Below, one piece after another: positions 2,624 to 63,079 of a stretch of 64,000 nt of DNA; within the stretch, counting starts at the first letter, position 1; each line of letters opens with the position of its first letter. This DNA is from Candidatus Micrarchaeota archaeon. Lineage in GTDB: Archaea > Micrarchaeota > Micrarchaeia > Anstonellales > Bilamarchaeaceae. A model generated the notes under the pieces. The model ran no database searches. It was not told where the DNA came from and saw only the letters and a program-made list of their open reading frames with translations. The stretch spans positions 13,621 to 77,620 of the forward strand of contig JAGVWJ010000014.1 in the NCBI GenBank assembly GCA_018304385.1, written 5' to 3'. The position numbers and the translations under genes were made by a program.

Positions 2624-2651
2624 TAATGGCTCATTGCTGAATGCTCATTGC
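2624..2651 (-). repeat. heptamer array, GC type, 4 units
   Basis: Minus strand: gcaatga gcattca gcaatga gccatta, followed directly by the tttttatttacata of leader copy 1. Confidence 0.75.
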
Positions 2652-2656
2652 AGCAG

Positions 2657-3373
2657 TTATAATACCATTAGTCCACTTGGTCCAAGCTTAATTGGTAAGA
2701 ATAAACTTTGCCCTGGAATATCCAACTCAAAGGATCCTCCTTTATCGACTATTATGTATTTTTCATCGATCATATGTTCAACCATGCCTAGTAATTGCTT
2801 ATCGTGCACCCCTTCTTCAACTAAGAATAAAACAGTTGCTCCAGCATTGCGCAGCCTACCGCTTACTACTTGTAAAAATTTAAGCATGGAATCTTTTGGA
2901 TTATAAAGTAATAATGTCGAGAGCGAGCTGAATATAACGCGTAGTTTTTTTCCTGCAGTTTTATTTATGATATCTCCTATGTTAAATGACATGTCCTCAA
3001 GTGCTTGCGGTCCAGAAACACTAGTAACGTTTGGCTCTTTGGAAGGACTACCTATTGTTTGTGAATAACAATCAACGAAACTTATTTCTCCATTTAGATC
3101 AAGATCTATTGAAGATGCTTTTTCTTTAATGGCGGATGGAGTCAAATCTGAAGTTATAAATAGGATGTGCTCGTTCTTTGATTTTAGACCTGCTGCTGCA
3201 AAATGGTAAGCTAATGCTGTTTTCTCTGTACAACTGGGGCCTAAAACCAAAACATTACCTGGATTAAGATAACCGCCTTCTAGGATTATATCTAAATCCT
3301 TAATGCCAGTAGATAGCCTATTTTTCTTTATTATTGGTAGATTTTCGTCTACACCTAATGGGGGTAATTCCAT
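2657..3373 (-). CDS. KaiC/RecA-superfamily ATPase-like protein (deviant Walker motifs)
   Basis: Start trimmed to MELPPLGV (ATG at 3373), because the longer ORF runs through the divergent promoter and leader repeat. It has the GIKDLDIILEGG + LGPSCTEKT layout of KaiC-like proteins. Walker A carries E where G is expected, and the Walker B strand reads RVIFSSLS, lacking Asp. Confidence 0.6.
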   Translation of the reverse strand: MELPPLGVDENLPIIKKNRLSTGIKDLDIILEGGYLNPGNVLVLGPSCTEKTALAYHFAAAGLKSKNEHILFITSDLTPSAIKEKASSIDLDLNGEISFVDCYSQTIGSPSKEPNVTSVSGPQALEDMSFNIGDIINKTAGKKLRVIFSSLSTLLLYNPKDSMLKFLQVVSGRLRNAGATVLFLVEEGVHDKQLLGMVEHMIDEKYIIVDKGGSFELDIPGQSLFLPIKLGPSGLMVL

Positions 3374-3427
3374 AAAAGTGATATACAGCAATCGCTTAAA
3401 AATCTTTCCACAGAAAGTCATTAAATT

Positions 3428-3524
3428 GCCGACGCAGTATACGAAACCATAAGACTGCGTCACCATAGAAAACATAAGTAGAACGACTGCTTTATAAAAA
3501 TGAGAAACAAGGAGGAGGACATAG
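3428..3524 (+). repeat. promoter-leader repeat, copy 2 (upstream of FNR-like gene; 5' part divergent)
   Basis: gccGACGCAG-tatacgaaaccataaga-CTGCGTCaccatagaaaacataagtagaacgac...aaaatgagaaacaaggaggaggacatagATG. The arms are 3431-37 and 3455-61. Confidence 0.75.
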
Positions 3525-4229
3525 ATGGAGATAAAAAAATATAAGATTTCTAGTGTTAGAAATGATGGTACAAATGTAAAGATATTTACTTTAGAGAGTA
3601 CCAATGGCCATAACGTACAGTTTAAACCCGGACAGTTTGTAAACCTTTACTTACTTGAAAATGGAAACTTTTCTATTTTTAGGCAGTTTTCTATTGCATC
3701 CGGCCCAAGCAGTGCTCAGTTGGAATTCTGTATAAAGATATTACAAGATGGAAAATTTACTAGCGCACTTGATAAACTATCTATTGGTGCTGAGATCGGA
3801 TTGGCTGGGCCATTTGGCCATTTCGTATACCAAGGGCAAAAAGAATGCGTGTTTATTGCTGCTGGCACAGGAATTGCACCTATGATGAGCATGCTCCGCT
3901 ACATTAATGAGAATAAAATAGATGGCGAATTTATAGTATTATATACTAACAAAACAGAAGACTCTATAATATATTATAATGAATTAAAGAAACTTCAGGC
4001 AGAGAATAAAAATATTAAAGTAGTGTTTACGCTTACCCAAGAGACGCCTGCACATTGGCAAGGAGAACTTGGAAGAATAAGCAGTGAGATGGTTGAAAAA
4101 TACGTAACTAAGTCTAATGAAAGGATGTGGTTTTTCTGCGGGCCAGTGGAATTTGTTAAAACTATTAAAGAGCACGCATTAGGCAAGGGCGCTCAGCCTG
4201 ATAAGATGAAAATAGAGGGATGGGGATAA
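3525..4229 (+). CDS. ferredoxin-NADP reductase-like FAD/NAD(P)-binding oxidoreductase
   Basis: RQFSIAS (RxYS-type FAD motif), GTGIAPMMSM NAD(P)-binding motif and a C-terminal FFCGPVEF. There is a GGAGG 8 nt upstream of the ATG. Confidence 0.8.
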   Translation: MEIKKYKISSVRNDGTNVKIFTLESTNGHNVQFKPGQFVNLYLLENGNFSIFRQFSIASGPSSAQLEFCIKILQDGKFTSALDKLSIGAEIGLAGPFGHFVYQGQKECVFIAAGTGIAPMMSMLRYINENKIDGEFIVLYTNKTEDSIIYYNELKKLQAENKNIKVVFTLTQETPAHWQGELGRISSEMVEKYVTKSNERMWFFCGPVEFVKTIKEHALGKGAQPDKMKIEGWG

Positions 4230-5774: not shown

Positions 5775-6245
5775 ATGGATAAAACTATTGATGCAATTGT
5801 AGATGGCGGTAAAGCAACATCTGGCCCACCTTTAGGACCGGCACTTGGACCATTAGGTGTAAATGCGGGTCAGGTAGTTGCGAAAATAAACGAGGCAACA
5901 AGCTCATTCTCTGGTATGAAAGTACCAGTAAAAGTAATAGTAAATACCAAAACAAAGGAATTCAAAATTGAAATTGGCACTCCACCAACAGCTGAGATAA
6001 TCAAAAAAGAAGCTGGGATAGCAAAGGGAGCAGCTAGTAAAGATGCAAAGGCAGGGAATATTGAATTAGAAAAAATTATAAAAATCGCAAAACAAAAGAG
6101 CAACTCGCTAGGCAAAGACACAAAATCAGTTGTTAATGAAATACTGGGTACTTGCGTAAGCATGGGCGTTACTGTTAACGGAAAAGATGCCAAGTTGGTT
6201 ATAAAAGAAATGAAAGAAGGAAAACATGAACCTTTACTGCCATGA
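5775..6245 (+). CDS. rpl11: 50S ribosomal protein L11 (uL11)
   Basis: GGKATSGPPLGPALGPLGVN signature, 156 aa. Confidence 0.95.
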   Translation: MDKTIDAIVDGGKATSGPPLGPALGPLGVNAGQVVAKINEATSSFSGMKVPVKVIVNTKTKEFKIEIGTPPTAEIIKKEAGIAKGAASKDAKAGNIELEKIIKIAKQKSNSLGKDTKSVVNEILGTCVSMGVTVNGKDAKLVIKEMKEGKHEPLLP

Positions 6246-6287
6246 GCTGTGAGCAGTCAGCAATGGGCCCATGGCTCAGGGCAACAA
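6239..6287 (+). repeat. heptamer array, GC type, 7 units
   Basis: gccatga gctgtga gcagtca gcaatgg gcccatg gctcagg gcaacaa. It starts on the L11 stop codon and ends at the tatttaaatatta box 16 nt before the propeller-protein ATG. Confidence 0.85.
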
Positions 6288-8713: not shown

Positions 8714-8727
8714 GTTTTGAGTAGGGT
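8714..8727 (+). repeat. short heptamer pair, GT type, abutting a TATA-like box
   Basis: gttttga gtagggt, then ataaaaatta. Only 2 units, so this is weak. Confidence 0.3.
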
Positions 8728-11135: not shown

Positions 11136-11270
11136 GCTATGTTCTACCCCTGTTTTCTCATTCTTATATAGACGTCGTACTACTTATGTTCTCTATAGGG
11201 ACGTGGTCTTATATATTCTGCATGCCACGTCGGCCGTTCTATGTCCTCCTCATGGAAGATAAAAACTTAG
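11136..11270 (-). repeat. promoter-leader repeat, copy 3 (upstream of glmS)
   Basis: Minus strand: gtttttatcttcc..catagaacggccGACGTGG-catgcagaatatataaga-CCACGTCcctatagagaacataagtagtacgacg..aagaatgagaaaaca..catagcATG. The arms are 11200-06 and 11225-31. Confidence 0.8.
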
Positions 11271-12239: not shown

Positions 12240-12267
12240 GCCATGAGCTTTGGGCATTGAGCCAATG
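12240..12267 (+). repeat. heptamer array, GC type, 4 units
   Basis: gccatga gctttgg gcattga gccaatg, followed directly by the paralog-1 promoter motif. Confidence 0.8.
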
Positions 12268-12268: not shown

Positions 12269-12297
12269 CTACCTTCTTAATCCCTTGTTACCACAAC
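12269..12297 (+). promoter_or_regulatory. conserved promoter motif of the repeat-protein family (paralog 1)
   Basis: ctaccttcttaatcccttgttaccacaac, ending 6 nt before the ATG. Confidence 0.6.
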
Positions 12298-12303: not shown

Positions 12304-13254
12304 ATGCATAAAGCTTCAGTAACAGTAGTATTTGGTAGAGAACACGAAACAAGACGTATTAGAGCCCCACATTTAAGACTAATTCAGGGTGGTTTAGCCA
12401 ATCATAAACCAGAACCAGAAGAAAGGTCAATTAACTCTTCAAGAACCGTAGAAACAGAATTCAAACGTTGGCTAGCCTTGTTTTTTATTAAGCGAGGATA
12501 TTTTTGTATTACCAAGAAAGGTTGTGATGAGCTAGCGGAAATTATAAGAAATCGATATATGGAGAATGCAAGAGAATATTTAGGTATAAACCCTACTGAT
12601 TCGTATAGGGATAATTATGTAATTACGGTAGTGGGAGTTTTAACAGATAGCAAGATTAAGGAAAGAATAAAAAGGCACATTAAAAAAATGCTAGAAGAAG
12701 GAAAAGCTGAAGAATTATATGATAAAGGGTACATTGATCGTGCTAATGAAGTAGATTGGGAAAAAAAAGAGGTACGTATTGTTGTAATAAGAAAACTCCT
12801 AGAGATAACTAGCATTGAACCTAAGGATAGTAGTTATGACCTTTTTAATAATAGTGGTTTAGTTAGAGTACTTAAAAAATATCATAAAGATTCTCACTAT
12901 AATGCTCTGGTAGAAGCAGGTTACGCATATTCTGAAGATGAGATTAAAGAACATGCAAGAACTATGCAATTTGGAACTGAAAGAATATATAAATGGGAGA
13001 TGAAAAGCGTTGGAAATTACTTTTGGGAAAGTATAGACATGAGAACTGCCGCAACTAGATGGGTCATATGGAAATTAAATAAAAATTCAAGAGAGATAAT
13101 ATTGGGTGATTTTAAAAATAATGGATTAGGCGGATTGTTAACTCATCATTACAAAGATTCTCCTTATGAAGCGCTTCTAGAAGCAGGTCTTGTCACTCCA
13201 GCAGATGAAGCACATATGCGCCGCTATGGCCAAGCAAGATTCAAAGAGGTCTAA
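12304..13254 (+). CDS. 87-aa-repeat family protein, paralog 1 (1.5 repeat units)
   Basis: Shares the EFKRWLALFFI..G...IT.KG..ELA N-domain and the DF.NNGL.GLL..Y..SPY.AL.EAGYAYSE.EI.EHA...F.T..IY.WE repeat with 18933..20459 and 23200..24474. Start chosen 7 nt after the conserved promoter motif. Confidence 0.6.
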   Translation: MHKASVTVVFGREHETRRIRAPHLRLIQGGLANHKPEPEERSINSSRTVETEFKRWLALFFIKRGYFCITKKGCDELAEIIRNRYMENAREYLGINPTDSYRDNYVITVVGVLTDSKIKERIKRHIKKMLEEGKAEELYDKGYIDRANEVDWEKKEVRIVVIRKLLEITSIEPKDSSYDLFNNSGLVRVLKKYHKDSHYNALVEAGYAYSEDEIKEHARTMQFGTERIYKWEMKSVGNYFWESIDMRTAATRWVIWKLNKNSREIILGDFKNNGLGGLLTHHYKDSPYEALLEAGLVTPADEAHMRRYGQARFKEV

Positions 13255-13307: not shown

Positions 13308-13526
13308 ATGGAATACGTTCAAATTTCTAAAGAAGAATATGAAAAATTGCTAAAATACCGAGACATTGTAAACAACATTGAAGAGGATATTCATGAAGAG
13401 CTAAATGTAAAACCTATAACTGATAAGCGAGCAATAGAGAAACTAAAGCGATTGGATAAGGAGGTAAAGGAAGGCAAAAGAAAAACTTTTTCTAAGGAAG
13501 AATTCCTAGCTGAATTCGGTAAATGA
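13308..13526 (+). CDS. putative antitoxin
   Basis: 72-aa charged helical protein, 9 nt upstream of a RelE/ParE-like gene. Confidence 0.45.
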   Translation: MEYVQISKEEYEKLLKYRDIVNNIEEDIHEELNVKPITDKRAIEKLKRLDKEVKEGKRKTFSKEEFLAEFGK

Positions 13527-13535
13527 GTAGGTCTA

Positions 13536-18811: not shown

Positions 18812-18865
18812 CAACAAGGTTTAGCCCCTAGGAAAGTTATTTTGATTATGAGCTAAACCTCGTTG
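18812..18865. promoter_or_regulatory. 14-bp-stem inverted repeat in divergent promoter region
   Basis: caacaaggtttagc (18812-18825) matches the reverse complement of gctaaacctcgttg (18852-18865) at 13 of 14 positions, with a 26-nt spacer. It lies between the idsA start and paralog 2. Confidence 0.55.
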
Positions 18866-18896
18866 TGAGCACTGAGCCATGAGCAGTGGGCAAAGA
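18862..18896 (+). repeat. heptamer array, 5 units
   Basis: gttgtga gcactga gccatga gcagtgg gcaaaga, followed directly by the paralog-2 promoter motif. Confidence 0.8.
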
Positions 18897-18932: not shown

Positions 18933-20459
18933 ATGAGAAGACAGGCAATTGGCAGTGGGCAATGTGCAGTGAGCCAAAGGCCAATAGCTAAGAGCCAAGT
19001 GCCACTAACTGACAAAATAGATAAATCAACTGAATTCAAACGTTGGTTAGCTTTATTCTTTATTGAAAGAGGGAGATATAAAATTACTGGTAAAGGTTAT
19101 ACTGAACTAGCGCCACAAGTTATTAGACAAAACCTAGAATTTGGAGAACCAGTCAGCGATAGAAAAAGAGAACCTAGGTTAGAAAGCACAAGACCATTAA
19201 CTCCAAAAGAGATTAAGGAAACAGTAGCAGCCAGAGTAGAAGGAATGATTAGAGAGGGAAAGACTGAAGAATTACTTGATGAAGGACATCTAGCTTATAA
19301 ATCAAATTGGAAAAATAAACAAACTAGAATAACAGTAATAAAAAAACTATTAGAATTTTTAGGCGCTAGTCCTGCTAGACTGGATAAATTAAGAGAAGAA
19401 TTAGGTGAACTTATTCTAAAATCTGCAAGAGAAGAACCAACAGACACAAAAAGAATGCAAGAAGTTTTAGAAGAGATAAAAAGTAATTTAGAAAGAATTA
19501 GAAAACTAAGTTTCAACAATTTTAGATTTTATGGAATTTCTGGTATGACTGGTAAATACCATAGGAACTCTCCTTATTTAGTTTTAGTAGAAATAGGTTA
19601 CGCTTATTCTGAGGAAGAAATTAGAGAACATGCTAGAACTGGAAAGTTTGGAACTGATAAAATATATCCTTGGGAAATGCAAAAAGTCGGAAGTGAAGTT
19701 TATAAAAATAATTCAATTAGGGTAGCTGCAATAAAATGGGTAGTTTGGAAATTGAAAAAGAAACCATCAGATATAAATACAATTGATTTTCAAAGTAATT
19801 TAGGTGGATTATTAAGGTACTATAATGATTCTGTTTATTCTGCACTAGTCGACGCAGAATATGCACATACCACTGAAGAAATATTAACCCAATCTAAAAT
19901 TGGTATATTTAATGATAACAAAGCATACCCATGGGAACTAGAGAGAATGCCTTTTGGTCTATGGCCGAATAAAGAAATTAGAATAGCTGCTACTAAATGG
20001 TTAGTTTGGAAAACTAAAAAAGATCCAAGGGAGATAACTCATAAGGATTTTAACAATAATAGATTAAACGGATTATTAAATCATTGCGAAGAATATGCTT
20101 ATAGGGCATTAGTAGAAGCGGGTTATGTTTATTCTGAAGATAAAATTAAAGAGCATGCAGGAACTGGAGAATTTAAAACTGAAAAAATTTATCCCTGGGA
20201 GATGGACCCTGCTCCACATGGATTTTACGAAGAAAAAGAAAATAGAATAGCTGTAATAAAGTGGCTATTCTGGAAAACTAGAAAACAAGCAAAGGATATA
20301 ATTCAACAGGATTTTATCAATAATGGGATTGCTACTATACTAAAATATTATAATGGCTCCCCCTATGAAGCACTTTTAGAAGCAGATCTAATAAGACCAG
20401 AAAATGAATCATACATGCGAAAGCGTGGATATCTAAATCTACAAAAAAGACACAGTTAA
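18933..20459 (+). CDS. 87-aa-repeat family protein, paralog 2 (3.5 repeat units)
   Basis: Same family as 12304..13254 and 23200..24474. The N-terminal roughly 200 codons are near-identical at DNA level to paralog 3. Codons 5-25 are encoded by a 9-unit heptamer array. Confidence 0.6.
   Translation: MRRQAIGSGQCAVSQRPIAKSQVPLTDKIDKSTEFKRWLALFFIERGRYKITGKGYTELAPQVIRQNLEFGEPVSDRKREPRLESTRPLTPKEIKETVAARVEGMIREGKTEELLDEGHLAYKSNWKNKQTRITVIKKLLEFLGASPARLDKLREELGELILKSAREEPTDTKRMQEVLEEIKSNLERIRKLSFNNFRFYGISGMTGKYHRNSPYLVLVEIGYAYSEEEIREHARTGKFGTDKIYPWEMQKVGSEVYKNNSIRVAAIKWVVWKLKKKPSDINTIDFQSNLGGLLRYYNDSVYSALVDAEYAHTTEEILTQSKIGIFNDNKAYPWELERMPFGLWPNKEIRIAATKWLVWKTKKDPREITHKDFNNNRLNGLLNHCEEYAYRALVEAGYVYSEDKIKEHAGTGEFKTEKIYPWEMDPAPHGFYEEKENRIAVIKWLFWKTRKQAKDIIQQDFINNGIATILKYYNGSPYEALLEADLIRPENESYMRKRGYLNLQKRHS
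18945..19007 (+). repeat. heptamer array, GC type, 9 units, inside the 5' coding region of paralog 2
   Basis: gcaattg gcagtgg gcaatgt gcagtga gccaaag gccaata gctaaga gccaagt gccacta. Every unit starts with GC at an exact 7-nt spacing. Confidence 0.85.
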
Positions 20460-23199: not shown

Positions 23200-24474
23200 A
23201 TGACAAGACGTACTGCAATGAGCCATGAGCCTTGGGCAGTGGGCAAAACACGAAACGCTGGACGTGAGACTACAATAAGCCAACAGCCACTAACTGATCA
23301 AATAGAAAAATCAGCAGAATTTAAGCGACGGTTAGCTTTATTCTTTATTGAAATAGGGAGATACAAGATTACTGATAAAGGATATGAAGAACTAGCACCT
23401 GTAGTATTTAGGCAAAATCTAGAATTTGGAGAACCTGTTAGTGATAGAGTTAGAGAACCAAGGTTAGAAAGTAAAAGACCATTAACTCCAAAAGAGATTA
23501 AGGAAACAGTAGCAGCGAAAGTAGAAGGAATGATTAGAGAGGGAAAGACTGAAGAATTACTTGATGAGGGGCATATAATATATAAAGCAGATTGGAAAGA
23601 AAAAAGAACTAGAATTAAAGTAATAAAAAAACTATTAGAATTTTTAGGAGCTAGTCCTGTTAGATTGGATGGATTAAGAGAAGAATTAAGCGAACTTATT
23701 CTAAAATCTGCCAGAGAAGAAAAGACAGATACAAAAAGAATGCAAGAGGTTTTAGAAGAGATTCAAAGAAATTTGGAGAGAGTTAGAAAAATAACCAAAG
23801 ATGATTTTATTAACAATGGATTAGGTGGGTTGTTAATAAGTCATTACAAAAACTCTCCGCATTCTGCGTTAGTAGAAGCTGGATATGCTTACTCTGAAAA
23901 TGAAATAAAGGAGCATGCTAGAACTGGAGAATTTGGAACTGATAAGATATATCCTTGGGAACATAACCAAACCGTACATAAGTTTTATAAAAAATCTGAA
24001 ATTAGGGTGGCAGCTATTGAATGGCTTATTTGGAGACTAAAGAAAGATCCAAAGGAAATAAATACTGACGATTTCAGGAACAATGGGTTAAGTGGATTGC
24101 TAAATCACTATAATGGTTCTCCCTATGCTGCACTACTAGAAGCTGGTTATGCTTATTCTGAAGATGAAATCTTAGAACATGCTAAAAAAATGGAGTTCAG
24201 AACTGATAGGATTTATCCTTGGGAACTAACAAAAATGCCTGTTGAACTATGGCCTAATAAAGAAATCAGAATAGCAGCAACCAAATGGTTGCTTTGGAAG
24301 TTAAAAAAAGAAGAACCAAGAGAAATAACCAGAAGGGATTTTATTAAAAACGGGCTCCAAGGCTTATTAGATAGATACGATGGCTCTCCCTATGAAGCAC
24401 TTCTAGAAGCCAGCCTAGTAGCGCCCACAGATGAATCTTACATGCGAGAACGAGGATACAGAAACTTAATATAG
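23200..24474 (+). CDS. 87-aa-repeat family protein, paralog 3 (2.5 repeat units)
   Basis: Start moved to MTRRTAMSHEP (ATG 23200), 9 nt after the conserved promoter motif, which removes the overlap with 22449..23147. Codons 6-17 are encoded by a 5-unit heptamer array. Confidence 0.6.
   Translation: MTRRTAMSHEPWAVGKTRNAGRETTISQQPLTDQIEKSAEFKRRLALFFIEIGRYKITDKGYEELAPVVFRQNLEFGEPVSDRVREPRLESKRPLTPKEIKETVAAKVEGMIREGKTEELLDEGHIIYKADWKEKRTRIKVIKKLLEFLGASPVRLDGLREELSELILKSAREEKTDTKRMQEVLEEIQRNLERVRKITKDDFINNGLGGLLISHYKNSPHSALVEAGYAYSENEIKEHARTGEFGTDKIYPWEHNQTVHKFYKKSEIRVAAIEWLIWRLKKDPKEINTDDFRNNGLSGLLNHYNGSPYAALLEAGYAYSEDEILEHAKKMEFRTDRIYPWELTKMPVELWPNKEIRIAATKWLLWKLKKEEPREITRRDFIKNGLQGLLDRYDGSPYEALLEASLVAPTDESYMRERGYRNLI
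23215..23249 (+). repeat. heptamer array, GC type, 5 units, inside the 5' coding region of paralog 3
   Basis: gcaatga gccatga gccttgg gcagtgg gcaaaac. Confidence 0.8.
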
Positions 24475-24857: not shown

Positions 24858-26078
24858 TTAATCAACTTTAAATATTTTTTTCGCTTCTTTAATCCCATCA
24901 CAAAGCTTATCCACATCTTTTTTATCATTATAAATATAGAAACTAGCTCTACTGCTAGCTGGCAATGCTAAACGCTCGTGCAATGGCATAGCACAATGAT
25001 GACCACTTCTAATAGCTACATTATATTCATCTAAGATGGAGGCAAGATCATGCGGATGAACACCATTAACAGTAAATGCAATAACACCTGCACGCTTTTC
25101 TGGATTTTTAGGACCAAAAATATTAACCCCGTTTATTTCTGTCATTTTTTGCAGTGCGTATTGAGTAATAATCTGTTCATGTTTTCTTATATTTTCCATT
25201 CCAAGTTTTCCAAGATAATCTATTGCAGCTCCTAAGCCAATCACACTGGAAGCTGGAGGCGTGCCTGACTCAAACTTAAACGGTAATTCGTTCCATTTTG
25301 ACTCTTCCACATGTACTTCAGAAATCATGTCCCCACCATACAAAAACGGATCCGTCTCTTCCAGCACTTGCTCTTTGCCGTATAATATACCTACACCAGT
25401 TGGACCAAGCATTTTATGACCTGAAAAAGCAAAAAAATCGCAATCAATTGCGCTAGCGTCTATTTGCATATGAGGGATACTTTGTGCGCCATCAACTAAT
25501 ACTTTTGCGCCCGCATCATGAGCAAGCTTACACAGTTTATTTACATTATTTAGAGTTCCAAGAACATTAGACACATGTGTGATCGCTAGTAATTTTGCAC
25601 CTTTTATTTTTTCAAAATCAGATTCTTTTAGTTCGCCTTCTTCATTTATGTCAATTATCTCAAGTTTTGCGCCTTTTTGTTTTGCTAATTGCTGCCATGG
25701 CACGAAATTACTATGATGCTCCATTATTGAAATAACTATTTTATCTCCTTTTTTGATATTTTTTTCTCCCCAACCGCGCATAACTAGATTTATGGATTCA
25801 GTAGTATTTTTCGTGAAAATAATCTCTTGCTCGCTTTTGGCAGATATAAAATCACGAACCTTGGTTCTTACATTCTCAAATTTCTCGCTAGCTTCTTCAC
25901 TTATTTTGTATATCCCGCGGTGTACATTTGCATTATAATTAGTATAAAATTCATTTACTGCATCTATTACTTGTTGCGGTCGCTGAGAGGTGGCTGCAGA
26001 ATCCAGATAAACAAGTGTGGGATTATTTTTAAAAATAGGAAAATCTTCTTTTATTTTATCGATGTTCATATTGCTCAT
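24858..26078 (-). CDS. sufS: cysteine desulfurase SufS
   Basis: PLP-lysine motif FSGHKMLGPTG and active-site RSGHHCAMP. 406 aa. Confidence 0.95.
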   Translation of the reverse strand: MSNMNIDKIKEDFPIFKNNPTLVYLDSAATSQRPQQVIDAVNEFYTNYNANVHRGIYKISEEASEKFENVRTKVRDFISAKSEQEIIFTKNTTESINLVMRGWGEKNIKKGDKIVISIMEHHSNFVPWQQLAKQKGAKLEIIDINEEGELKESDFEKIKGAKLLAITHVSNVLGTLNNVNKLCKLAHDAGAKVLVDGAQSIPHMQIDASAIDCDFFAFSGHKMLGPTGVGILYGKEQVLEETDPFLYGGDMISEVHVEESKWNELPFKFESGTPPASSVIGLGAAIDYLGKLGMENIRKHEQIITQYALQKMTEINGVNIFGPKNPEKRAGVIAFTVNGVHPHDLASILDEYNVAIRSGHHCAMPLHERLALPASSRASFYIYNDKKDVDKLCDGIKEAKKIFKVD

Positions 26079-26102
26079 TGCTCAAAGCCCATTGCTCACG
26101 GC
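26068..26102 (-). repeat. heptamer array, GC type, 5 units, spanning the sufC stop and sufS start
   Basis: Minus strand: gccgtga gcaatgg gctttga gcaatga gcaatat. It encodes the last residues of SufC (TAVSNGL-stop) and the first codons of SufS (MSN). Confidence 0.8.
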
Positions 26103-26834: not shown

Positions 26835-26950
26835 CGTCTTATGCCCTCCTTATGCTCAAGCACTAGAGTATCTCTTAGGTTAGCCGCAGGACCCACCGCA
26901 AAGCGGTTCCCCCGCGGCGGCCTTCTTATGTATTCATTATGTAAATAAAA
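26835..26950 (-). repeat. promoter-leader repeat, copy 4 (divergent variant upstream of sufC)
   Basis: It shares the 5' ttttatttacataatgaatacataagaaggccg and the 3' aaggagggcata..ATG. The central hairpin is replaced by a GC-rich structure (accgc-ttt-gcggt nested in gccgc...gcggc). Confidence 0.5.
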
Positions 26951-26985
26951 CCTTGGCCCAAAGCTCATGGCTCATTGCTCATGGC
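26951..26985 (-). repeat. heptamer array, GC type, 5 units, centre of the sufC/sufB divergent region
   Basis: Minus strand: gccatga gcaatga gccatga gctttgg gccaagg, followed directly by the ttttatttacata of leader copy 4. Confidence 0.85.
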
Positions 26986-27047
26986 AGTATAATTTAGGTA
27001 TGCCTAAATTTTTAAACTTAAGCATAGATATTCATATAGTTGATTTT

Positions 27048-30634: not shown

Positions 30635-30655
30635 GCCTTGGGCAGTGAGCCATTG
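30635..30655 (+). repeat. heptamer array, GC type, 3 units
   Basis: gccttgg gcagtga gccattg, then ggttttatattacata (leader copy 5). It begins 3 nt after the S9 stop. Confidence 0.7.
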
Positions 30656-30787
30656 GGTTTTATATTACATAAGGTTTCATAGAACGGCCGACGCGACCAT
30701 AAAGAAAATACGTGTGTCGCGTCCCTAAAGGTTTCATAGGTAAAACGACGGCTTTGTTAGAATGGGAGAACAGAAGGAGGTCATAGC
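30656..30787 (+). repeat. promoter-leader repeat, copy 5 (upstream of rpoN)
   Basis: ttttatattacataaggtttcatagaacggccGACGCGAC-cataaagaaaatacgtgt-GTCGCGTCcctaaaggtttcataggtaaaacgacgg..agaatgggagaacagaaggaggtcatagcATG. The arms are 30690-97 and 30716-23. Confidence 0.8.
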
Positions 30788-30982
30788 ATGGAATTCCCAA
30801 TAAGATGTTTTAGTTGTGGCGGAGTTATCGGAGATTTATACGAACAATACAAATCATTATCAAAAGATAAAGGTCCTGAAGCAGCACTTAACGATCTTGG
30901 ATTAGATAGATATTGTTGTAGAAGAATGTTTGTTTCACATATCGAAATTACAGATAAGATATCGAAGTATCCAAGAATTTAG
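30788..30982 (+). CDS. rpoN: DNA-directed RNA polymerase subunit N (Rpo10)
   Basis: PIRCFSCG...RYCCRRM zinc motif, 64 aa. Confidence 0.95.
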   Translation: MEFPIRCFSCGGVIGDLYEQYKSLSKDKGPEAALNDLGLDRYCCRRMFVSHIEITDKISKYPRI

Positions 30983-31016
30983 CAGTGAGCTTTGGGCAGT
31001 GGGCCTTGAGCCACTG
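30982..31016 (+). repeat. heptamer array, GC type, 5 units
   Basis: gcagtga gctttgg gcagtgg gccttga gccactg, then ggttttattaacata (leader copy 6). It begins on the last base of the rpoN stop. Confidence 0.85.
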
Positions 31017-31146
31017 GGTTTTATTAACATAAGTAATACCTAGGACGACCGACGTGGCATTAAGAAAATATAAGACCACGTCCCTATAGAGAATATAAGT
31101 AGAACGACGAATATGTAAGAATGAGAAAACAAAAGTATAATACAGC
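31017..31146 (+). repeat. promoter-leader repeat, copy 6 (immediately upstream of tRNA-Pro)
   Basis: ttttattaacataag..gaccGACGTGG-cattaagaaaatataaga-CCACGTCcctatagagaatataagtagaacgacg..aagaatgagaaaacaaaag, then tRNA +1 at 31147. The arms are 31051-57 and 31076-82. It lacks the GGAGG..catagATG tail of the protein-gene copies. Confidence 0.8.
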
Positions 31147-33292: not shown

Positions 33293-33366
33293 GCCATGAG
33301 CAGTGGGCAGTGAGCCGTGGGCCAACTCGTTTGGTGGCTCACTGCTCATGGCCCAATGCCCAAGGC
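33293..33366. repeat. inverted pair of GC-type heptamer arrays (5 + 5 units)
   Basis: Forward: gccatga gcagtgg gcagtga gccgtgg gccaact (33293-327). Reverse-oriented: tggtggc tcactgc tcatggc ccaatgc ccaaggc (33332-366). Confidence 0.85.
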
Positions 33367-45984: not shown

Positions 45985-46019
45985 GTTTCCAGTTTTCAGT
46001 TTCGAGTCTTGAGTCCCCA
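45985..46019 (+). repeat. heptamer array, GT type, 5 units
   Basis: gtttcca gttttca gtttcga gtcttga gtcccca, lying 18 nt upstream (on the minus strand) of the lpdA start. Confidence 0.75.
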
Positions 46020-52588: not shown

Positions 52589-52663
52589 GTTGTGAGTTTG
52601 GAGTTATGAGTTTTGAGTAATTGTCAGTGCACAACTCACAACCCACAACTCATTACTCATAAC
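52589..52663. repeat. inverted pair of GT-type heptamer arrays (5 + 5 units) upstream of E2
   Basis: Forward: gttgtga gtttgga gttatga gttttga gtaattg (52589-623). Reverse-oriented: gcacaac tcacaac ccacaac tcattac tcataac (52629-663). Confidence 0.85.
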
Positions 52664-53500: not shown

Positions 53501-53595
53501 AAGAATAGAACTATGATGAAATATAATAAATTATCTTTTTTAAGTCTCAGATTAGTACTTCCGAAGGTAATTAAATCTTAATGCTTTTTTTCATG

Positions 53596-53623
53596 GTCGC
53601 GAGTCTCGCGTTCTAGGTCTTGC
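53596..53623 (+). repeat. heptamer array, GT type, 4 units, inside the IS element
   Basis: gtcgcga gtctcgc gttctag gtcttgc. Confidence 0.6.
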
Positions 53624-53691
53624 CTGATATATAGGATCAAATAAGGAAAAACACAACCTAGTTTTCACTGTTAAAAAATTTTCTGAGCTAA

Positions 53692-54846
53692 CTACATTGC
53701 AATTTTAAGGGGTAAAACAACAAGATTATTTCTGAAGAAGTCTATTAGCTCATCTTTTATCTCATCAACTGTTATTTTTATCTCAAAATTTTCTATGTTA
53801 AAATCATTCATCAATAAATTTATATAAACCCAGAAATTGTAAAGAAGCATAGAAATTACAAAGAAAAAATACCTGACATTTCCTTCTTTGCATGAAGTTT
53901 TTATTCTAAACTGATCATGAACTCTATGAGCTGTTTCAATCCCCCAACGTTGTTTGTACAAATCACTTAAGAGTAAAACCTCATTCCTATATTCTGAAAC
54001 AGGAATATTTGTAACGTATCCATAAATTTTCTTTTCTTCATGCTCATTATCTTCGATAATTACAAGATCAATCCATTCAGATTCTTTGTCTGAATTACTT
54101 ATTTCATAGGCCTGAAAGACAGCAGGCAACCCTTTACATTCCTTTAGTACTCTTTCAAAATGAGAATCCTGTTTTGCTGGCATTAGAAAGTTAATTCTTT
54201 TTTCCCTAAACAGTGCAAAAACATCAGTTTCATAGAATTCCCTGTCAAGAAGAACCAAATCAGGCTTTATCCAATATGCATTAAGAAATTCCAGTGCTTT
54301 GTTTATTAGTGCAATTTTGTCATCTCCTCTGTAAACAGGATAAGCAAATAGAAGAAACCTTATTCCATTTACTACTAATGCAACTGTAAAAAACTTGAAA
54401 CAGTAGTAAGTGCCATCCTTTGGCTCATAGCCAGTTACATATTCACAGTTTTTATCTCCATAAAATGCTTCTGGGGTAAAATCAAACGCAATTACTACTT
54501 TTATGCTTGGGAATCTTCTCTGAATAAGCTTGATTGTTCTCCTACTTACAAATGTTCTCATCATTCTTTCTATGTTTTCTATTGTTGTTTTGTCTTTTAT
54601 ATGCAATAAAGCATCATCAGCAGAAGGATAATTACCTGTTTTTGATCTGTTTTCTGTTGATTTATTGCTTATAGCTGCATCAACAAACAGTTTCATTATC
54701 TGGGCTGAGTTATATCTTGCATTGGCTCTAAACTGGAAAAGATTGTAATTCAGCAGCTCACGGCTGAGCTTTTCCAGTATATTCTTCTCTTTTTCCTGTG
54801 AGCTAAAGGGTTTTAAGTTTTCTGGGAGGAAAACCATAGTAGCCAC
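53692..54846 (-). CDS. DDE transposase (IS4 superfamily, ISH3-like)
   Basis: C-terminal YKQRWGIETAHR (the Y-R-E-K region of IS4-type transposases) plus DREF and LLDREFY acidic motifs. The start is GTG at 54846 or ATG at 54837. Confidence 0.8.
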   Translation of the reverse strand: MATMVFLPENLKPFSSQEKEKNILEKLSRELLNYNLFQFRANARYNSAQIMKLFVDAAISNKSTENRSKTGNYPSADDALLHIKDKTTIENIERMMRTFVSRRTIKLIQRRFPSIKVVIAFDFTPEAFYGDKNCEYVTGYEPKDGTYYCFKFFTVALVVNGIRFLLFAYPVYRGDDKIALINKALEFLNAYWIKPDLVLLDREFYETDVFALFREKRINFLMPAKQDSHFERVLKECKGLPAVFQAYEISNSDKESEWIDLVIIEDNEHEEKKIYGYVTNIPVSEYRNEVLLLSDLYKQRWGIETAHRVHDQFRIKTSCKEGNVRYFFFVISMLLYNFWVYINLLMNDFNIENFEIKITVDEIKDELIDFFRNNLVVLPLKIAM

Positions 54847-54886
54847 CTGTTTATTTTGGTCGTTCTAATCAGAATAAACAGTGGCT
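54841..54886 (-). promoter_or_regulatory. hairpin covering the transposase start region
   Basis: agccac(c)tgtttatt (54841-55) pairs with aataaacagtggct (54873-86), leaving one bulged base. It overlaps the GTG start. Confidence 0.5.
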
Positions 54887-54970
54887 ATATTTTAATGTGT
54901 TAAAAGAAGTTCGGAACTACTGCAGATGCTGCTAGAATACTTTTTAAATATTAAAGGTAATGATAAAATA

Positions 54971-57588: not shown

Positions 57589-57609
57589 CCATTGCCCACT
57601 GCTCATGAC
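57589..57609 (-). repeat. heptamer array, 3 units, spanning the E1alpha stop, between E1alpha and E1beta
   Basis: Minus strand: gtcatga gcagtgg gcaatgg. The TGA of the first unit is the E1alpha stop codon. Confidence 0.65.
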
Positions 57610-59553: not shown

Positions 59554-59589
59554 GTCATGAGCTCATACCCAAGGCTTATAGCCCAAGGT
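59554..59589. repeat. mixed-orientation heptamer units between the ZIP and patatin genes
   Basis: gtcatga gctcata, then the reverse-type units ccaaggc ttatagc ccaaggt. Confidence 0.5.
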
Positions 59590-61266: not shown

Positions 61267-61680
61267 ATAAGCAAGCAAGGCAATTGCTACTATGCGAATT
61301 ATGCTAAAATATGGATACAGCGAAGCTAGGCTAACTGTTGCACCAAATATTGCGAATGGCAATAGCGGGCAGAATGGACAAACAATTGTCAGTACACCTA
61401 AGAACGTACCGCCATAAGAACACTTGAATACATTGCCCTCTTTTTTCTTATCATCAGCATATCGCGCGAGTGTTAATGCTATTGCTGCAAGCAGGGATAA
61501 TGAAATCGCAAATGCAATATCTATAATAGTAACCTGCTCCATTCTAACAGAATATATATTAAGTATCGGCAATGGATAAAGTCCTAAGGAAAAACCTGAT
61601 AGAAATAAAAATAGAGCGCCAATAAGAATGGCATTGTATAAATATTTTTTATAAGTAAAAACTTGGATTAGTTTATTCAT
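61231..61680 (-). CDS. hypothetical membrane protein with CPFCP motif
   Basis: 149 aa with 4 TM segments and VCPFCPLLPF in a TM. Its 3' end overlaps the patatin gene by 36 nt. Confidence 0.45.
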   Translation of the reverse strand: MNKLIQVFTYKKYLYNAILIGALFLFLSGFSLGLYPLPILNIYSVRMEQVTIIDIAFAISLSLLAAIALTLARYADDKKKEGNVFKCSYGGTFLGVLTIVCPFCPLLPFAIFGATVSLASLYPYFSIIRIVAIALLAYSIYLSNRLISY

Positions 61681-61710
61681 AAAAATTAAACGATGGTAAA
61701 ACTTTAATTA

Positions 61711-62859
61711 CTATTCCAAACCCTTATTAAGAATAGACCATGCAAGCAATGCATATACCGCAAATGAAGCAACAAGTGCTAAAAATACACTATGAAAACC
61801 AAAACTTGTTATTGCAAAACCAACTGCTGCGAGCGTTGCGAATTCTACTAGTCTATAAGGAATAATCAAAATAGATATATCAATTGAAGGCGTAACACTG
61901 CTTTTAACGATCCTTGCCATAATTGTTTCCATAATATTAACCAAACCTAATCCGCCTCCTATGCCGGATAAAAACAGGAACAATAAAAAAACATGCTCAA
62001 CATTCTGAATAAATAAAATAGGCAAAACACCGAAAAATATTGCACCAAGAACAATATTTTTTATATGCATACTGTGTTTCGCAGCAATATAGCTGGAAAG
62101 TGAAAAGGATAAAGAATAAAGTGCAAGTCCGAAGCCTATTATCGCAGGCGATGATTTCAAAACTTCTGCCATGTATAGTGGGATAACAATTGCAAGAAGC
62201 GGGGCTTCATAAATCGCAGCGATACTTAGAACTAGAGCTGCGGCCCAAAATTCCTTACTGTGCTTTTTCTTTAACTCTATCATAAATGCAGATAATTTTA
62301 ATTTCTTTTGTTCCTTTCCGTTTCTTACATTTAGAGAAAAATAAAATAATAAGGAACTAACTAAAACCAGCAGAAGAAAACTACTTTGAATCGATATAAA
62401 AATTAAGGCAATTGCTATAGCTACCCTTCCAAAAACTGTACTAAACGCTCTGGCAGCTCCCATTATTGATGCATTTTTCGCTGCCTGCTTCTCTTCTATA
62501 TGATATATCTCTGTTCTGTTTACTGACCAAAATGCTGCGGCGCGAAATCCTTCAACAACTTTACCAAATGCAAAGTGCAAAGGTGTTGATGATAAAGTAT
62601 AAACAACCAGAGTTAAAACATGCGCAATCGCGTTCCCAACAAAAATTAATCGCGTTCCAAGATAATCTGCGATAACTGCAAATATAAACCTAAAAATTAG
62701 CATTATTATTGAGAGAACGGAAAAAATTAATCCTATGCTTTCAATAGATACATTTTTCTCTAGTAAGTATAGTGGCAAAAGCACTGCAACAGCTGAAGCT
62801 ATGAAATTATGGATAAAGTTTATTGCTAAGGTTCTGAAAAACCCATTTTCCAGTGACAT
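61711..62859 (-). CDS. MFS-type transporter
   Basis: About 12 TM segments and an MFS-like loop (ADYLGTRL). ATG 62859 is preferred over the TTG at 62883. Confidence 0.72.
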   Translation of the reverse strand: MSLENGFFRTLAINFIHNFIASAVAVLLPLYLLEKNVSIESIGLIFSVLSIIMLIFRFIFAVIADYLGTRLIFVGNAIAHVLTLVVYTLSSTPLHFAFGKVVEGFRAAAFWSVNRTEIYHIEEKQAAKNASIMGAARAFSTVFGRVAIAIALIFISIQSSFLLLVLVSSLLFYFSLNVRNGKEQKKLKLSAFMIELKKKHSKEFWAAALVLSIAAIYEAPLLAIVIPLYMAEVLKSSPAIIGFGLALYSLSFSLSSYIAAKHSMHIKNIVLGAIFFGVLPILFIQNVEHVFLLFLFLSGIGGGLGLVNIMETIMARIVKSSVTPSIDISILIIPYRLVEFATLAAVGFAITSFGFHSVFLALVASFAVYALLAWSILNKGLE

Positions 62860-62899
62860 ATGAATATTTAAAATAGGTAACAATAAAAAATATAAATAG

Positions 62900-63079
62900 G
62901 CTCCTGTAATCTAGCCCGGTCAAAAGAGTTTACAGTCTCGAGTCTCGAGTCTTGAACTATTTACTGATAGGATGTCAGACTCTCACTCTGAATACCCGAG
63001 TTCAAATTCAAACTTTTAGGTAAAAGTTTGATCAAAACTGCTTCGTTAATAGAAGCTTATGGAAATCTCGGCAGGAGCG
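62900..63079 (+). tRNA. tRNA-Glu(CUC) with two non-canonical introns (D-loop about 46 nt, T-loop about 59 nt)
   Basis: Hand fold. Acceptor GCTCCTG (62900-06) is perfectly complementary to CAGGAGC (63072-78), followed by discriminator G. D-stem ATCT (62909-12) pairs with GGAT (62970-73). The D-loop AGCCCGGTCAA differs by 1 nt from the canonical archaeal tRNA-Glu D-loop as I recall it. The anticodon arm is TCAGA-CTCTCAC-TCTGA (CTC at 62982-84). T-stem CCGAG (62996-63000) pairs with CTCGG (63067-71), with TTCAAAT at 63001-07. The exons sum to 75 nt. Intervening blocks are about 62924-62969 and about 63008-63066, and the exact junctions are ambiguous by a few nt. Confidence 0.65.
62928..62955 (+). 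repeat. heptamer array, GT type, 4 units, inside tRNA-Glu intron 1
   Basis: gtttaca gtctcga gtctcga gtcttga. Confidence 0.75.

Follow-up and report, generated by a model that had tools for sequence, protein, structure and literature searches.

The DNA examined is a 64-kb window of a groundwater Candidatus Micrarchaeota (DPANN) MAG, representing an archaeon with tiny cells, in agreement with the archaeal source implied by a preliminary description of the same stretch. Throughout the window there are short tandem arrays, each with 3 to about 10 copies of the 7-nt unit G-[C/T]-[not G]-[not C]-T-G-[A/G]. The preliminary description had taken G1, C/T2 and G6 as the fixed bases; these are indeed kept, and the conserved scaffold also includes T5 and R7, while G is avoided at position 3 and C at position 4.

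Six paralogous copies of a ~125-nt promoter cassette lie in the same window and precede unrelated genes, namely a 109-aa gene, an oxidoreductase, glmS, sufC, rpoN and tRNA-Pro. The layout, as in the copy at 2497..2623 (minus strand), is a TATA-like box, a hairpin, a conserved spacer, GGAGG and ATG. Four of the six carry an array: this copy and those at 26838..26952 (minus; upstream of sufC, array A8), 30656..30787 (plus; upstream of rpoN, A9) and 31017..31146 (plus; upstream of the intron-containing tRNA-Pro, A10). The two without an array are at 3406..3524 (plus), where the upstream side lies within a divergent gene, and at 11136..11265 (minus; upstream of glmS), where it is a conserved divergent promoter region.

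Four arrays directly adjoin the box GGTTTTATTTACATAA of such a cassette. A1 (2624..2651, minus; sense units GCAATGA GCATTCA GCAATGA GCCATTA) has its first base 5 nt past the stop codon of a KaiC-like gene, A8 (26951..26985, minus) is in the divergent sufC/sufB region, A9 (30635..30655, plus) has three units starting 2 nt past the S9 stop codon, and A10 (30982..31016, plus) has five units, the first of which takes in the final base of the rpoN stop codon. Five others end a short distance from a start codon. A2 (6239..6287, plus) contains the L11 stop codon in its first unit, consists of four forward units followed by reverse-orientation units that form a partial hairpin, and is followed directly by the TATA-like TATTTAAATATT, ending 30 nt short of the likely start (6318) of a PQQ-repeat protein. 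A3 (12240..12267, plus) begins 5 nt past the preceding stop codon, adjoins a 'class B' box (12269-12296) and ends 36 nt from the ATG of paralog 1; A4 (18862..18896, plus), in a divergent intergenic region, adjoins a class B box (18897-18924) and likewise ends 36 nt from the ATG of paralog 2. A11 (33293..33366, minus), an inverted array pair making a long hairpin, has the TATA-like TTATTAAATATTTAC directly 3' and ends 30 nt from the ATG of a 420-aa gene, and A12 (57589..57609, minus), with three units from 3 nt past the preceding stop codon, ends 35 nt from the next ATG.

In these nine cases the end of the array coincides with the upstream edge of the TATA-like box. Archaeal TATA boxes precede the start site by about 26 nt, and both the TATA-like boxes and the leaderless geometry were read from the sequence using general knowledge of archaeal promoters. 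Where free DNA is available upstream (90 nt at A4, and 62 and 150 nt in two other cases) the array still adjoins the downstream box. Exceptions to this placement are A7 (26068..26102, minus), in the bare sufC-sufS intercistronic spacer with the SufC reading frame extending into it; A13 (52589..52663, minus), an inverted pair of GT-variant units (GTNNTGR) that forms a hairpin between E2 and an E1-beta-like gene, its end 9 nt from the E2 ATG; and A5 and A6, which are translated. A5 (18945..19007, plus) has nine units in the N-terminal coding region of paralog 2, with TGA lost (TGT, ATA, CTA) from the units that place TGR in frame, and A6 (23215..23249, plus) has five in that of paralog 3 (start 23200, class B box 23164-23190). 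These four arrays, and the two cassettes that work without one, speak against a role as promoter flank.

The arrays are polar. They often start ACT-GCCATGA, GCCATGA being over-represented in first position (P=0.015), and in 8 of 13 the last unit is GCCA-non-TG (also written GCCAnTG). Unit order is non-random, with a mean longest shared block of 9.6 compared with 8.3 +/- 0.3 for shuffled units.

The period-7 signal is real: the letters match at the positions given in the preliminary description, all 12 of its GC-type loci hold, and counts are far above chance. Against 200 dinucleotide-preserving shuffles of the window, (G[CT]NNNG[AG]){3,} was found 12 times with 0.08 expected, (GCNNTG[AG]){3,} 8 times with 0 expected, and (GTNNNGA){3,} twice with 0.005 expected. 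A motif-free self-match test (windows >=20/28) gave 20 at lag 7 and at most 3 at each other lag from 1 to 24, and a column-consensus score at a stringent threshold gave 11-15 regions for period 7 and 0-9 for periods 6 and 8-11. TRF, unprompted, reported period 7 at 26070, 26963, 33300, 45985, 52589, 52630 and 62934. Lag 7 is the sole lag with excess self-similarity, and the excess is limited to non-coding DNA (0.325, with 0.28-0.29 at neighbouring lags), coding DNA being flat at 0.278. Ten to 11 of the 13 arrays fall in the 8.3% non-coding share of the window (P~8e-11). The earlier view that they are neither coding repeats nor CRISPR holds. In all 11 direct arrays GYNNTGR is on the sense strand of the downstream gene (two-sided P~0.001).

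Within the population the arrays are fixed: four of them are 100% identical, without any difference in length, in 10 or more independent assemblies obtained from different samples, and they are therefore not hypervariable. The option of a hyper-mutable microsatellite, raised in the preliminary description, is thus unsupported at the population scale. The same invariance makes it highly improbable that these are contingency (phase-variation) loci, in which rapid slippage of unit number would switch neighbouring genes on and off; tandem short units do lie beside promoters and start codons, and unit number is lineage-dependent (3 vs 5), but unit degeneracy suppresses slippage and the neighbours are housekeeping genes (rpoN, tRNA, suf, ribosomal proteins).

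Between lineages the arrays change. The related genomes L220 and L221, with flanks 75-91% identical, have arrays in three of the same spacers, differing in unit number and content. G1, C2 and T5 are retained in 30/30 comparisons, while positions 3, 4, 6 and 7 are ~57% mismatched; such conservation can also arise by unit turnover and homogenisation, without selection. At the 449-aa locus, four units in the left half of the L220 array have T6 where their window counterparts carry the consensus G6, a concerted change. At the A9 position L220 and L221 have five units compared with three in the window, and at the A11 position L220 has a direct, T-rich period-7 array of equal length. These alignments show that change between lineages keeps the 7-nt register: units are gained or lost, or altered in concert, with G1, C2 and T5 constant. 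In L220 an array in the L18e 5' UTR has the opposite orientation, an observation against a promoter-flank role.

Presence also varies. A7 is absent in L002/L003 (flanks 99% identical) and in L221, L224 and L225, and is therefore a derived gain; A8 is absent in L220, L221, L125, L224 and L225, with a degenerate remnant in L124. At the A10 position L220 has five scrambled units and L221 has neither array nor box; the two are 99.4% identical over 4.2 kb, and exactly array plus box is lost in L221. The aligned sequences thus show array and TATA-like box gained or lost as a single block between close strains, likely by exchange among the six paralogous promoter cassettes. Relatives below about 80% protein identity are without arrays, and none was found in the more distant Micrarchaeota (L222-L227) or in about 1 Mb of other sufB loci. 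The arrays constitute a lineage-specific family of interspersed degenerate heptanucleotide tandem repeats in Candidatus Micrarchaeota.

This history bears on a possible, though somewhat unlikely, explanation in which the arrays are a non-functional by-product, a selfish or neutral filler born by slippage and expanding in unconstrained DNA (intergenic gaps, disordered protein termini and linkers), with orientation and promoter adjacency acquired only by hitch-hiking with copied promoter cassettes. Array identity is 66-69%, compared with 84% for flanking non-coding DNA, the faster evolution being by unit turnover, and in array-free relatives the orthologous spacers are only 9-62 nt and evidently functional. 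The two array-less cassettes are exactly those with constrained upstream DNA, arrays also occur within coding N-termini and the E2 linker, period-7 arrays of many kinds, seen with control motifs, are common elsewhere, and slippage has been proposed for heptamers generally. However, a by-product would not readily account for one unit scaffold, a limited vocabulary and defined first and last units common to at least 13 loci, for the uniform orientation and tight junction with the promoter box despite free space, for full stability in the population, unlike freely slipping repeats, or for persistence at three orthologous L220 sites.

Placement relative to the upstream gene raises the RNA level, which the preliminary description had offered as one option. 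In 7 cases the array begins 0-5 nt after the upstream stop codon or overlaps it, and most intergenic gaps are wholly occupied by array and promoter, so that attachment to the promoter and to the upstream stop are indistinguishable in 6 of the 9 cases, a point against the promoter-flank reading. The arrays could be 3'-UTR or intercistronic signals acting on the sense RNA as a termination helper, processing site, stability hairpin or RNA-binding-protein platform. Strict co-orientation with transcription is consistent with this, Beggiatoaceae TAACTGA repeats were proposed as post-transcriptional sites, and the inverted arrays fold very strongly (A11 -43.9 kcal/mol as RNA, z=-5.8; A13 z=-6.0), while the hairpins of A9, A10 and A2 have z about -2 (A2 z=-2.0), those of A9 and A10 just before a U-rich stretch. 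Most direct arrays, however, fold no better than shuffles (z from -1.1 to +2.2) and lack a consistent fold, A4 and A8 have no co-directional upstream gene, an Rfam search gave no match for the arrays, and the U-rich stretch that follows doubles as the TATA-like box. We consider an RNA element unlikely, and weak as an explanation of the direct arrays in particular. It is even harder to see the arrays as translation insulators, comparable to TAACTGA repeats, that halt ribosomes between genes by a TGA every 7 nt in three frames. TGA ends about 55% of units, and several arrays hold the stop codon of the upstream gene, but TGG replaces it in about 40%, and all three sense frames are closed in only 3/13 arrays (mean about 2 frames, compared with 1.6 in other intergenic 35-mers), making this reading very improbable.

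The preliminary description knew of no archaeal element of this form, and literature searches found no paper describing one, but the arrays do have a precedent: heptanucleotide repeats over-represented in intergenic DNA form an established class in bacteria (Mrazek 2007, cited through PMC4679880). The bacterial repeats, among them cyanobacterial STRRs and the GGGAATC / GGGGA(T/C)T repeats of Xanthomonas and Nostoc (PMC4692102), likewise have a 7-nt tandem unit at many interspersed loci per genome, a strong intergenic preference, one or few unit families per genome, occasional inverted pairs able to form stem-loops, and intergenic sites shared across related genomes with varying length and sequence. 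They are near-perfect copies, whereas the window units are degenerate, varying at positions 3, 4 and 7 of a fixed scaffold; the window arrays are short, with 3-10 units of which the first and the last are defined, direct arrays are co-oriented with the downstream gene and adjoin a promoter box, and the host is an archaeon. TAACTGA direct repeats of marine Beggiatoaceae, some Cyanobacteria and Bacteroidetes (MacGregor 2015, PMC4679880) are also heptamers with TGA at the end. They come in short sets (2-6 copies) that are mainly intergenic, 'forward' toward the downstream gene and sometimes over the upstream stop codon; ribosomal-protein operons contain them, and a few copies lie at ORF ends. Their unit sequence is different and exactly copied, and the sets lie a few nt from the start codon, often replacing the Shine-Dalgarno, for which a translational role was suggested (PMC4679880), whereas the window arrays stop at the TATA-like box, 30-36 nt or 116-132 nt before the start codon.

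The six closely similar promoter-plus-leader cassettes before unrelated genes, varying in presence between close strains, resemble the 'mobile' promoters reused in prokaryotes (Nijveen, Matus-Garcia and van Passel 2012, PMC3575422). There the promoter itself is the element, whereas the heptamer array is a separable extra 5' flank, found at four of six cassettes and at other promoters. REP, BIME and REPIN sequences are similar in being short, GC-rich, interspersed intergenic elements just past stop codons, with some inverted pairs forming hairpins and with intragenomic sequence populations. REPs differ in being imperfect palindromes (about 20-40 nt) that lack an internal 7-nt periodicity and are moved by RAYT transposases; most window arrays, in contrast, are direct repeats, and no RAYT-like gene was found in the window. 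Borg tandem repeats of Methanoperedens are archaeal, fast-evolving, located between and inside genes, and encode low-complexity protein segments where inside genes, but their units are perfect, longer, locus-specific and of independent origin, with no common heptamer scaffold and, within genes, with lengths that are multiples of 3 (PMC9879509).

The best reading of the family is thus a polar and degenerate form of the intergenic heptanucleotide repeats of bacteria (STRR, TAACTGA, GGGAATC). It is a lineage-specific archaeal counterpart of these, with a putative function. It is remodelled in 7-nt register and linked to promoter modules, probably serving as a flank upstream of the promoter or as a platform for binding. 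As the best explanation, held with about even confidence, we suggest that the array flanks a promoter module on its upstream side. Within a very AT-rich genome, such a block is GC-rich, free of TATA and directionally asymmetric; it would space the stop codon of the preceding gene from the next core promoter, and a TGRGC motif every 7 bp, giving three sites per two helical turns, might serve as a platform for a DNA-binding factor or set promoter position and direction. The earlier idea that the arrays present a repeated face to a DNA-binding protein is consistent with these observations, since they adjoin promoter boxes and are strand-oriented. The 7-nt register itself would most likely come from replication slippage, as proposed for bacterial intergenic heptanucleotide repeats (PMC4679880, PMC4692102).

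A second unit family, GTYTYGA, has TCRARAC on the sense strand of the gene at two loci. One (45985..46019, minus; plus strand GTTTCCA GTTTTCA GTTTCGA GTCTTGA GTCCCCA) ends 17 nt before the lpd ATG, beside GGTGAT, and the other (62928..62955, minus; GTCTCGA twice and GTCTTGA) is upstream of an MFS transporter gene. The original list of about 18 loci had combined the main arrays with this family, with a GT-type repeat at 53596-53623 that sits within an IS element, and with two loci, described there as weak, that are not arrays: 8714-8727 has two units only and is not significant, and 59554-59589, which has no period of 7, is a palindrome of 10 bp (ATGAGCTCAT) with a 14-nt direct repeat after it. 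Further period-7 stretches occur at 2133-2172 (weak) and, in coding DNA, at 39862-39895 and 52244-52295.

The family-1 arrays of the window (A1-A13, unit GYNNTGR) form a lineage-specific, degenerate and polar heptanucleotide family that occupies the space from a stop codon to the TATA-like box that follows it, in every case in the sense orientation, and we hold this descriptive part of the analysis with high confidence. In the comparison with shuffled sequence proposed in the preliminary description, the pattern (G[CT]NNNG[AG]){3,} occurs 12 times against 0.08 expected from 200 dinucleotide-preserving shuffles. The narrower patterns (GCNNTG[AG]){3,} and (GTNNNGA){3,} were observed 8 and 2 times, with expectations of 0 and 0.005 from 200 shuffles of the same kind. 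Without reference to any motif, sliding windows with at least 20 of 28 self-matches number 20 at lag 7 and no more than 3 at every other lag from 1 to 24, and a column-consensus score picks out period 7 at stringent thresholds. The intergenic-versus-coding comparison suggested in the same description gave a lag-7 value of 0.325 in non-coding DNA, against 0.28-0.29 at neighbouring lags, and a flat profile in coding DNA. The shuffles and the other lags and periods rule out an artefact of chance or composition.

The sequences at the loci originally listed read as transcribed, but the list itself required sorting. Positions 33293-33366, 52589-52663 and part of 6239-6287 are inverted array pairs, and a second unit family, GTYTYGA (TCRARAC on the sense strand), accounts for the GT-type loci at 45985-46019 and 62928-62955. 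Other entries dropped out as free arrays: 8714-8727 holds two units only, 59554-59589 combines a palindrome of 10 bp with a 14-nt repeat, and 53596-53623 sits within an IS element of 1370 bp (53553-54922) that carries a DDE transposase gene (PF01609, 53692-54846, minus strand), terminal inverted repeats AGTAsTTCCGAA and a 5-bp CAGAT duplication. This IS is present in the window and absent from contig L205 of the same population, and is therefore an insertion polymorphism. An array-linked transposase was considered and rejected, as the only transposase of the window lies in this unrelated IS and the other GT-type arrays are unrelated to its ends.

The unit profile, drawn from 75 units, has G at position 1 (84%), C at position 2 (77%, otherwise T or G), A, C or T at position 3, A, G or T at position 4, and then T5, G6 and a purine. 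The vocabulary is limited (GCCATGA seven times, GCAGTGG six, GCAATGA five, GCAGTGA four, and others), and the units are far from near-identical, with positions 3, 4 and 7 differing from unit to unit and the commonest unit accounting for only 7/75. Unit order is non-random, the mean longest shared block being 9.6 against 8.3 +/- 0.3 when units are shuffled; the first unit is enriched for GCCATGA (P=0.015) and often preceded by ACT, and a GCCA-non-TG unit comes last in 8/13 arrays. With their order non-random and their first and last units defined, the arrays are polar elements rather than plain microsatellites. The variable positions 3, 4 and 7 had prompted the idea of DGR-like adenine mutagenesis of a GCAATGA template, which was discarded since the GT-variant substitutions are not A-specific and the window has no reverse transcriptase. 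GCAATG and GCAGTG resemble type IIS recognition sites, and a restriction-site cluster was among the readings considered.

The window has a G+C content of 35.8% and is about 92% coding, based on gene calls taken from the source contigs with a few over-extended starts corrected. Among its genes are an archaeal ribosomal cluster (L18e-L13-S9-RpoN-S2), a suf operon, glmS, EF-1alpha and a 2-oxoacid dehydrogenase operon. Exact sequence matches assign the window to a Candidatus Micrarchaeota MAG from Rifle groundwater; its sequence is also found on ANAN16 scaffolds, and MBS3067724, MBS3067742 and MBS3067764 are the matching NCBI proteins. Ten or eleven of the 13 family-1 arrays fall in the non-coding 8.3% of the window (P~8e-11), and all direct arrays (11/11) read GYNNTGR on the sense strand of the downstream gene (P~0.001). 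On the upstream side, seven arrays start 0-5 nt past the stop codon of a co-directional gene or overlap it. On the downstream side an A/T-rich, TATA-like box follows immediately after arrays A2, A3, A4, A11 and A12, which end 30, 36, 36, 30 and 35 nt before the start codon, respectively. In archaeal promoters the TATA box lies some 26 nt ahead of the start site, and leaderless mRNAs are common; the spacing of these five arrays is consistent with the geometry of a leaderless promoter. Arrays A1, A8, A9 and A10 directly adjoin the box GGTTTTATTTACATAA of a cassette of about 125 nt, a putative promoter/leader module. Three arrays have free DNA upstream (A4 90 nt, A8 62 nt, A11 150 nt), and all three still adjoin the downstream box. 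Distances to the downstream start are 30-36 nt or 116-132 nt, and 10 nt or less only for A7 and A13: A7 (26068-26102, minus strand) occupies the entire sufC-sufS spacer, and A13 (52589-52663, minus strand) is a hairpin that ends 9 nt before the E2 start.

The remaining exceptions, A5 and A6, are located within genes, 12-15 nt into the coding regions of two paralogs. Their units with an in-frame TGR have lost TGA, and A5 and A6 are therefore translated. Three paralogs lie beside A3-A6 (12304-13254, 18933-20459 and 23200-24474, all plus strand), each preceded by a conserved 'class B' box, CTACCTTnTTAATCCCTTGTTACCACAA, and their mutual homology begins only past the array-encoded segment. The products are of unknown function and have 2-4 internal repeats of about 75 amino acids with the motif SPYxALxEAGYAYSExEI...YPWE...WKxKK. 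As candidates for an array-associated enzyme they were rejected, being repeat-domain proteins for which Pfam, PHROG and PDB gave no relative. The first paralog and a RelE-like toxin pair (13308-13805) are missing at the orthologous site in two distant relatives (L226, L227). Stop codons could also be the point of the arrays, insulating translation of neighbouring genes; only 3/13 arrays close all three frames, and a three-frame stop function is nearly excluded.

A profile search found six copies of the cassette (nhmmer E 1e-13 to 6e-34), at 2497-2623 (-), 3406-3524 (+), 11136-11265 (-), 26838-26952 (-), 30656-30787 (+) and 31017-31146 (+). Each is laid out as a TATA-like box, about 10 nt, a hairpin of the GACGGCCGACG type with compensatory changes in 3/7 pairs, a conserved spacer, GGAGG and ATG. 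The genes that follow are unrelated: a 109-aa gene, an oxidoreductase, glmS, sufC, rpoN and a structured RNA. The last is an unannotated tRNA-Pro(GGG) at 31148-31279 (+), between rpoN and rps2, with a T-loop insert of about 58 nt; it was missed by ARAGORN and Rfam, and ARAGORN calls it after in silico removal of the insert. Gene and insert are kept at the same place in L220, L222 and L224. Similar upstream regions before non-homologous genes mark reused or mobile promoters, and this is a property of the cassette, not of the array itself; reused promoters in prokaryotes are a described concept that the six cassettes match (PMC3575422). Arrays occur on four of the six cassettes, and in the other two the upstream side is taken by a divergent gene or a conserved divergent promoter. 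The hairpin leader is older than the arrays because it is present upstream of tRNA-Pro in L222, one of the distant relatives, and of glmS in L226.

The preliminary description had offered a hyper-mutable, microsatellite-like class as one option, and the population data speak against it. Contigs assembled independently from 10 or more samples match the window at 99.8-100% identity and show zero change in A2, A9, A10 and A11; the arrays are therefore not hypervariable. Phase variation by contingency SSRs is nearly excluded, as the arrays stay the same across these assemblies and have degenerate units. Change is seen at A7, where two contigs with a match of about 99% to the window (L002, L003) carry 21 unrelated bases in place of the 40-nt array region. 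Their differences from the window form a 125-nt patch (26061-26184) of about 10% divergence with identical flanks, covering the 3' end of sufC, the spacer and the start of sufS, which has the look of a short tract acquired from a diverged lineage by recombination (gene conversion). Since L221, L224 and L225 also have no array there, A7 is a derived gain, one that rewrote the SufC C-terminus.

Comparison with a sister lineage (L220/L221, GCA_053535495.1; S9 80% identical to the window, non-coding flanks 75-91% identical) shows remodelling of the arrays in a 7-nt register, and gain or loss of array and putative promoter box as a pair. In the comparison of unit number at orthologous loci suggested earlier, L220/L221 have arrays at the same three spacers, and the distant Micrarchaeota L222-L227 (about 63-79% protein identity), where gene order is kept, have none. 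The S9-rpoN spacer has three units in the window and five in L220/L221. The rpoN-tRNA spacer has five in both the window and L220, with positions 3-4 scrambled, and the spacer before a 449-aa ORF (a 420-aa gene after curation) has a direct, T-rich period-7 array of about 72 nt in L220 where the window has an inverted pair. Across the two arrays that align in register, G1, C2 and T5 are kept in 30/30 comparisons, against about 57% mismatches at positions 3, 4, 6 and 7; in one array four left-half units of L220 have T6 where the window has the consensus G6, a concerted change. This pattern fits unit turnover and homogenisation in a 7-nt register, and alone is no proof of selection. Over the 4.2 kb that end at the rpoN stop codon, L221 and L220 are 99.4% identical; past it L221 lacks exactly the array and its TATA-like box (about 51 nt) and has a different hairpin allele. 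The S9|rpoN junction is 62 nt in one distant relative and 9 nt in another, against a 155-nt array plus cassette in the window; in one of L222-L227 the hairpin leader is retained before tRNA-Pro. Among sufB loci of other organisms, about 1 Mb in total, there were essentially no arrays.

In the arrays TGRGC recurs every 7 nt, strand-oriented and adjoining the putative promoter box. We infer that the arrays act as the upstream flank of promoter modules. The flank could serve as spacer or insulator, GC-rich and free of TATA in an AT-rich genome; it could offer a DNA-binding factor a platform of periodic TGRGC; or it could do both. An oligomeric protein might bind such a periodic motif on DNA, as at an operator or UAS, or on RNA, as TRAP does or HutP, which binds triplets at 7-nt spacing. 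A real promoter-related function is a tentative reading that falls somewhat short of probable, and the whole package, descriptive layers plus promoter-flank role, is evenly poised. A bolder version, which we consider doubtful, is that array and TATA-like box constitute a self-propagating mini promoter module in which the array is a putative operator or a platform for upstream activation. TGRGC every 7 bp would then be read by a dedicated factor, or by TFB itself, and so set the strength and direction of promoters in an AT-rich, ultra-compact genome. If true, the heptanucleotide repeats, a class long unexplained, would thereby gain their first concrete function.

A role at the RNA level, in the upstream transcript, is rather improbable. 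Only the inverted arrays A11 and A13 fold far better than shuffles (z=-5.8 and -6.0, respectively). A2, A9 and A10 reach z of about -2. The other direct arrays lie between -1.1 and +2.2. The direct arrays have no consistent fold, and a generic hairpin or intrinsic terminator was rejected on the same ground. No relevant Rfam match was found in the whole window at gathering score or in 30600-31400 at E<=1. A viral or mobile origin was rejected, as viral contigs gave 15-mer matches at chance level and contained no arrays; the polar pattern had 0 matches in them.

The main rival to a promoter flank is that the arrays are functionless slippage products hitch-hiking with promoter cassettes, which is possible, if unlikely. 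Heptanucleotide units, a class with no established function, are reported by Mrazek 2007 (as summarised in PMC4679880) to be the commonest long simple repeats in most of the prokaryotic genomes surveyed; polymerase slippage has been proposed as their origin (Mrazek 2007, as reported in PMC4679880; PMC4692102). Like heptanucleotide SSRs or STRRs, the arrays are head-to-tail 7-nt units above chance, dispersed (13 GYNNTGR loci) and mainly intergenic. Their units are not near-identical, and they do not show the length variability within a population that slipping repeats should have; what slippage might have left is seen between lineages, as three versus five units, shuffling and concerted change. 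If functionless, they document slippage-born DNA colonising the last free nucleotides of a streamlined genome, even becoming protein N-termini.

The arrays belong in part with the bacterial interspersed heptanucleotide repeats (STRR, GGGAATC, TAACTGA), with which they have in common their unit length, dispersion, intergenic bias and orientation to the downstream gene. They differ from TAACTGA of Beggiatoaceae in the unit itself, GYNNTGR; forward orientation is common to both (11/11 here), but the distance is 30-36 or 116-132 nt here against a few nucleotides, and the arrays stand at putative promoters, not at start codons. As the preliminary description had concluded from unit length, they are not CRISPRs, which have repeats of 23-50 nt, unique spacers and cas genes nearby; the 7-nt units are contiguous, without spacers, and no cas gene is among the called genes of the window. 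Nor are they contingency loci, and they do not look like classical REPs. REP/REPIN elements are imperfect palindromes of about 20-40 nt, often in inverted pairs and associated with RAYT; of the arrays, 3/13 are inverted pairs with strong folds and the rest are direct, and the window has no RAYT. Our literature search found no description of such arrays in archaea. Unlike the described bacterial cases, these have a DPANN host, are degenerate on a fixed scaffold, strictly transcription-oriented and regular to the base pair against putative promoters, and travel with the promoter box between strains. A promoter flank or binding platform is a sharper, testable hypothesis than earlier descriptions of heptamer repeats gave, and the S9|rpoN junction, 9 nt in distant relatives and 155 nt here, shows how new internal promoters can enter compact operons.

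A reference-genome scan, itself conditioned on the pattern, showed, among the matches listed, heptamer arrays of the GCNNTGR form across many bacterial phyla; some are degenerate and have inverted partners. At four loci in Acidobacteriota and other bacteria (L047, L048, L102, L107) the GCNNTGA arrays are degenerate and have inverted partners close by; some fall exactly between two co-directional ORFs, and the architecture is that of 33293-33366 in the window. In viral contigs, two control motifs matched in composition (GCNNGTR and CGNNGTR) gave perfect as well as degenerate arrays in comparable numbers. A universal cross-phylum GCNNTGA signal was discarded as mostly ascertainment, since the control motifs do likewise. 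Period-7 arrays as a class are widespread, in agreement with the literature on heptanucleotide repeats cited above, and the GYNNTGR-type motif itself is not universal. By the control motifs, arrays such as those at the four bacterial loci are not tied to one motif; the class seems under-described.

Other elements were seen in the window. Between sufC and sufB (26993-27008) stands a perfect palindrome of 16 bp, TTTAGGTATGCCTAAA, which is invariant in L124, L125, L220, L221, L224 and L225 and is probably the operator of a suf regulator. A GC-rich element, GAAGCGAGGTGGTTTGCCGAAGCTCCACCTCACCTCC, at the end of a 103-aa gene (33482-33518, minus strand) is 100% conserved in L220. A related motif, GCGAGGC...GCCGAA, in the L18e 5' leader (29244-29272, plus strand) frames a hairpin that varies among the window, L220, L222 and L224, and that in L220 is made of reverse-orientation heptamer units; these motifs may be a protein-binding RNA element, perhaps kink-turn-like. 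Coding 7-nt periodicity occurs in the Ala/Pro/Ser-rich linker of the E2 acyltransferase (52244-52295, minus strand) and in a stretch of a CTP-transferase-like gene (39862-39895, plus strand), and these two cases suggest that 7-nt duplications can persist in tolerant protein segments.
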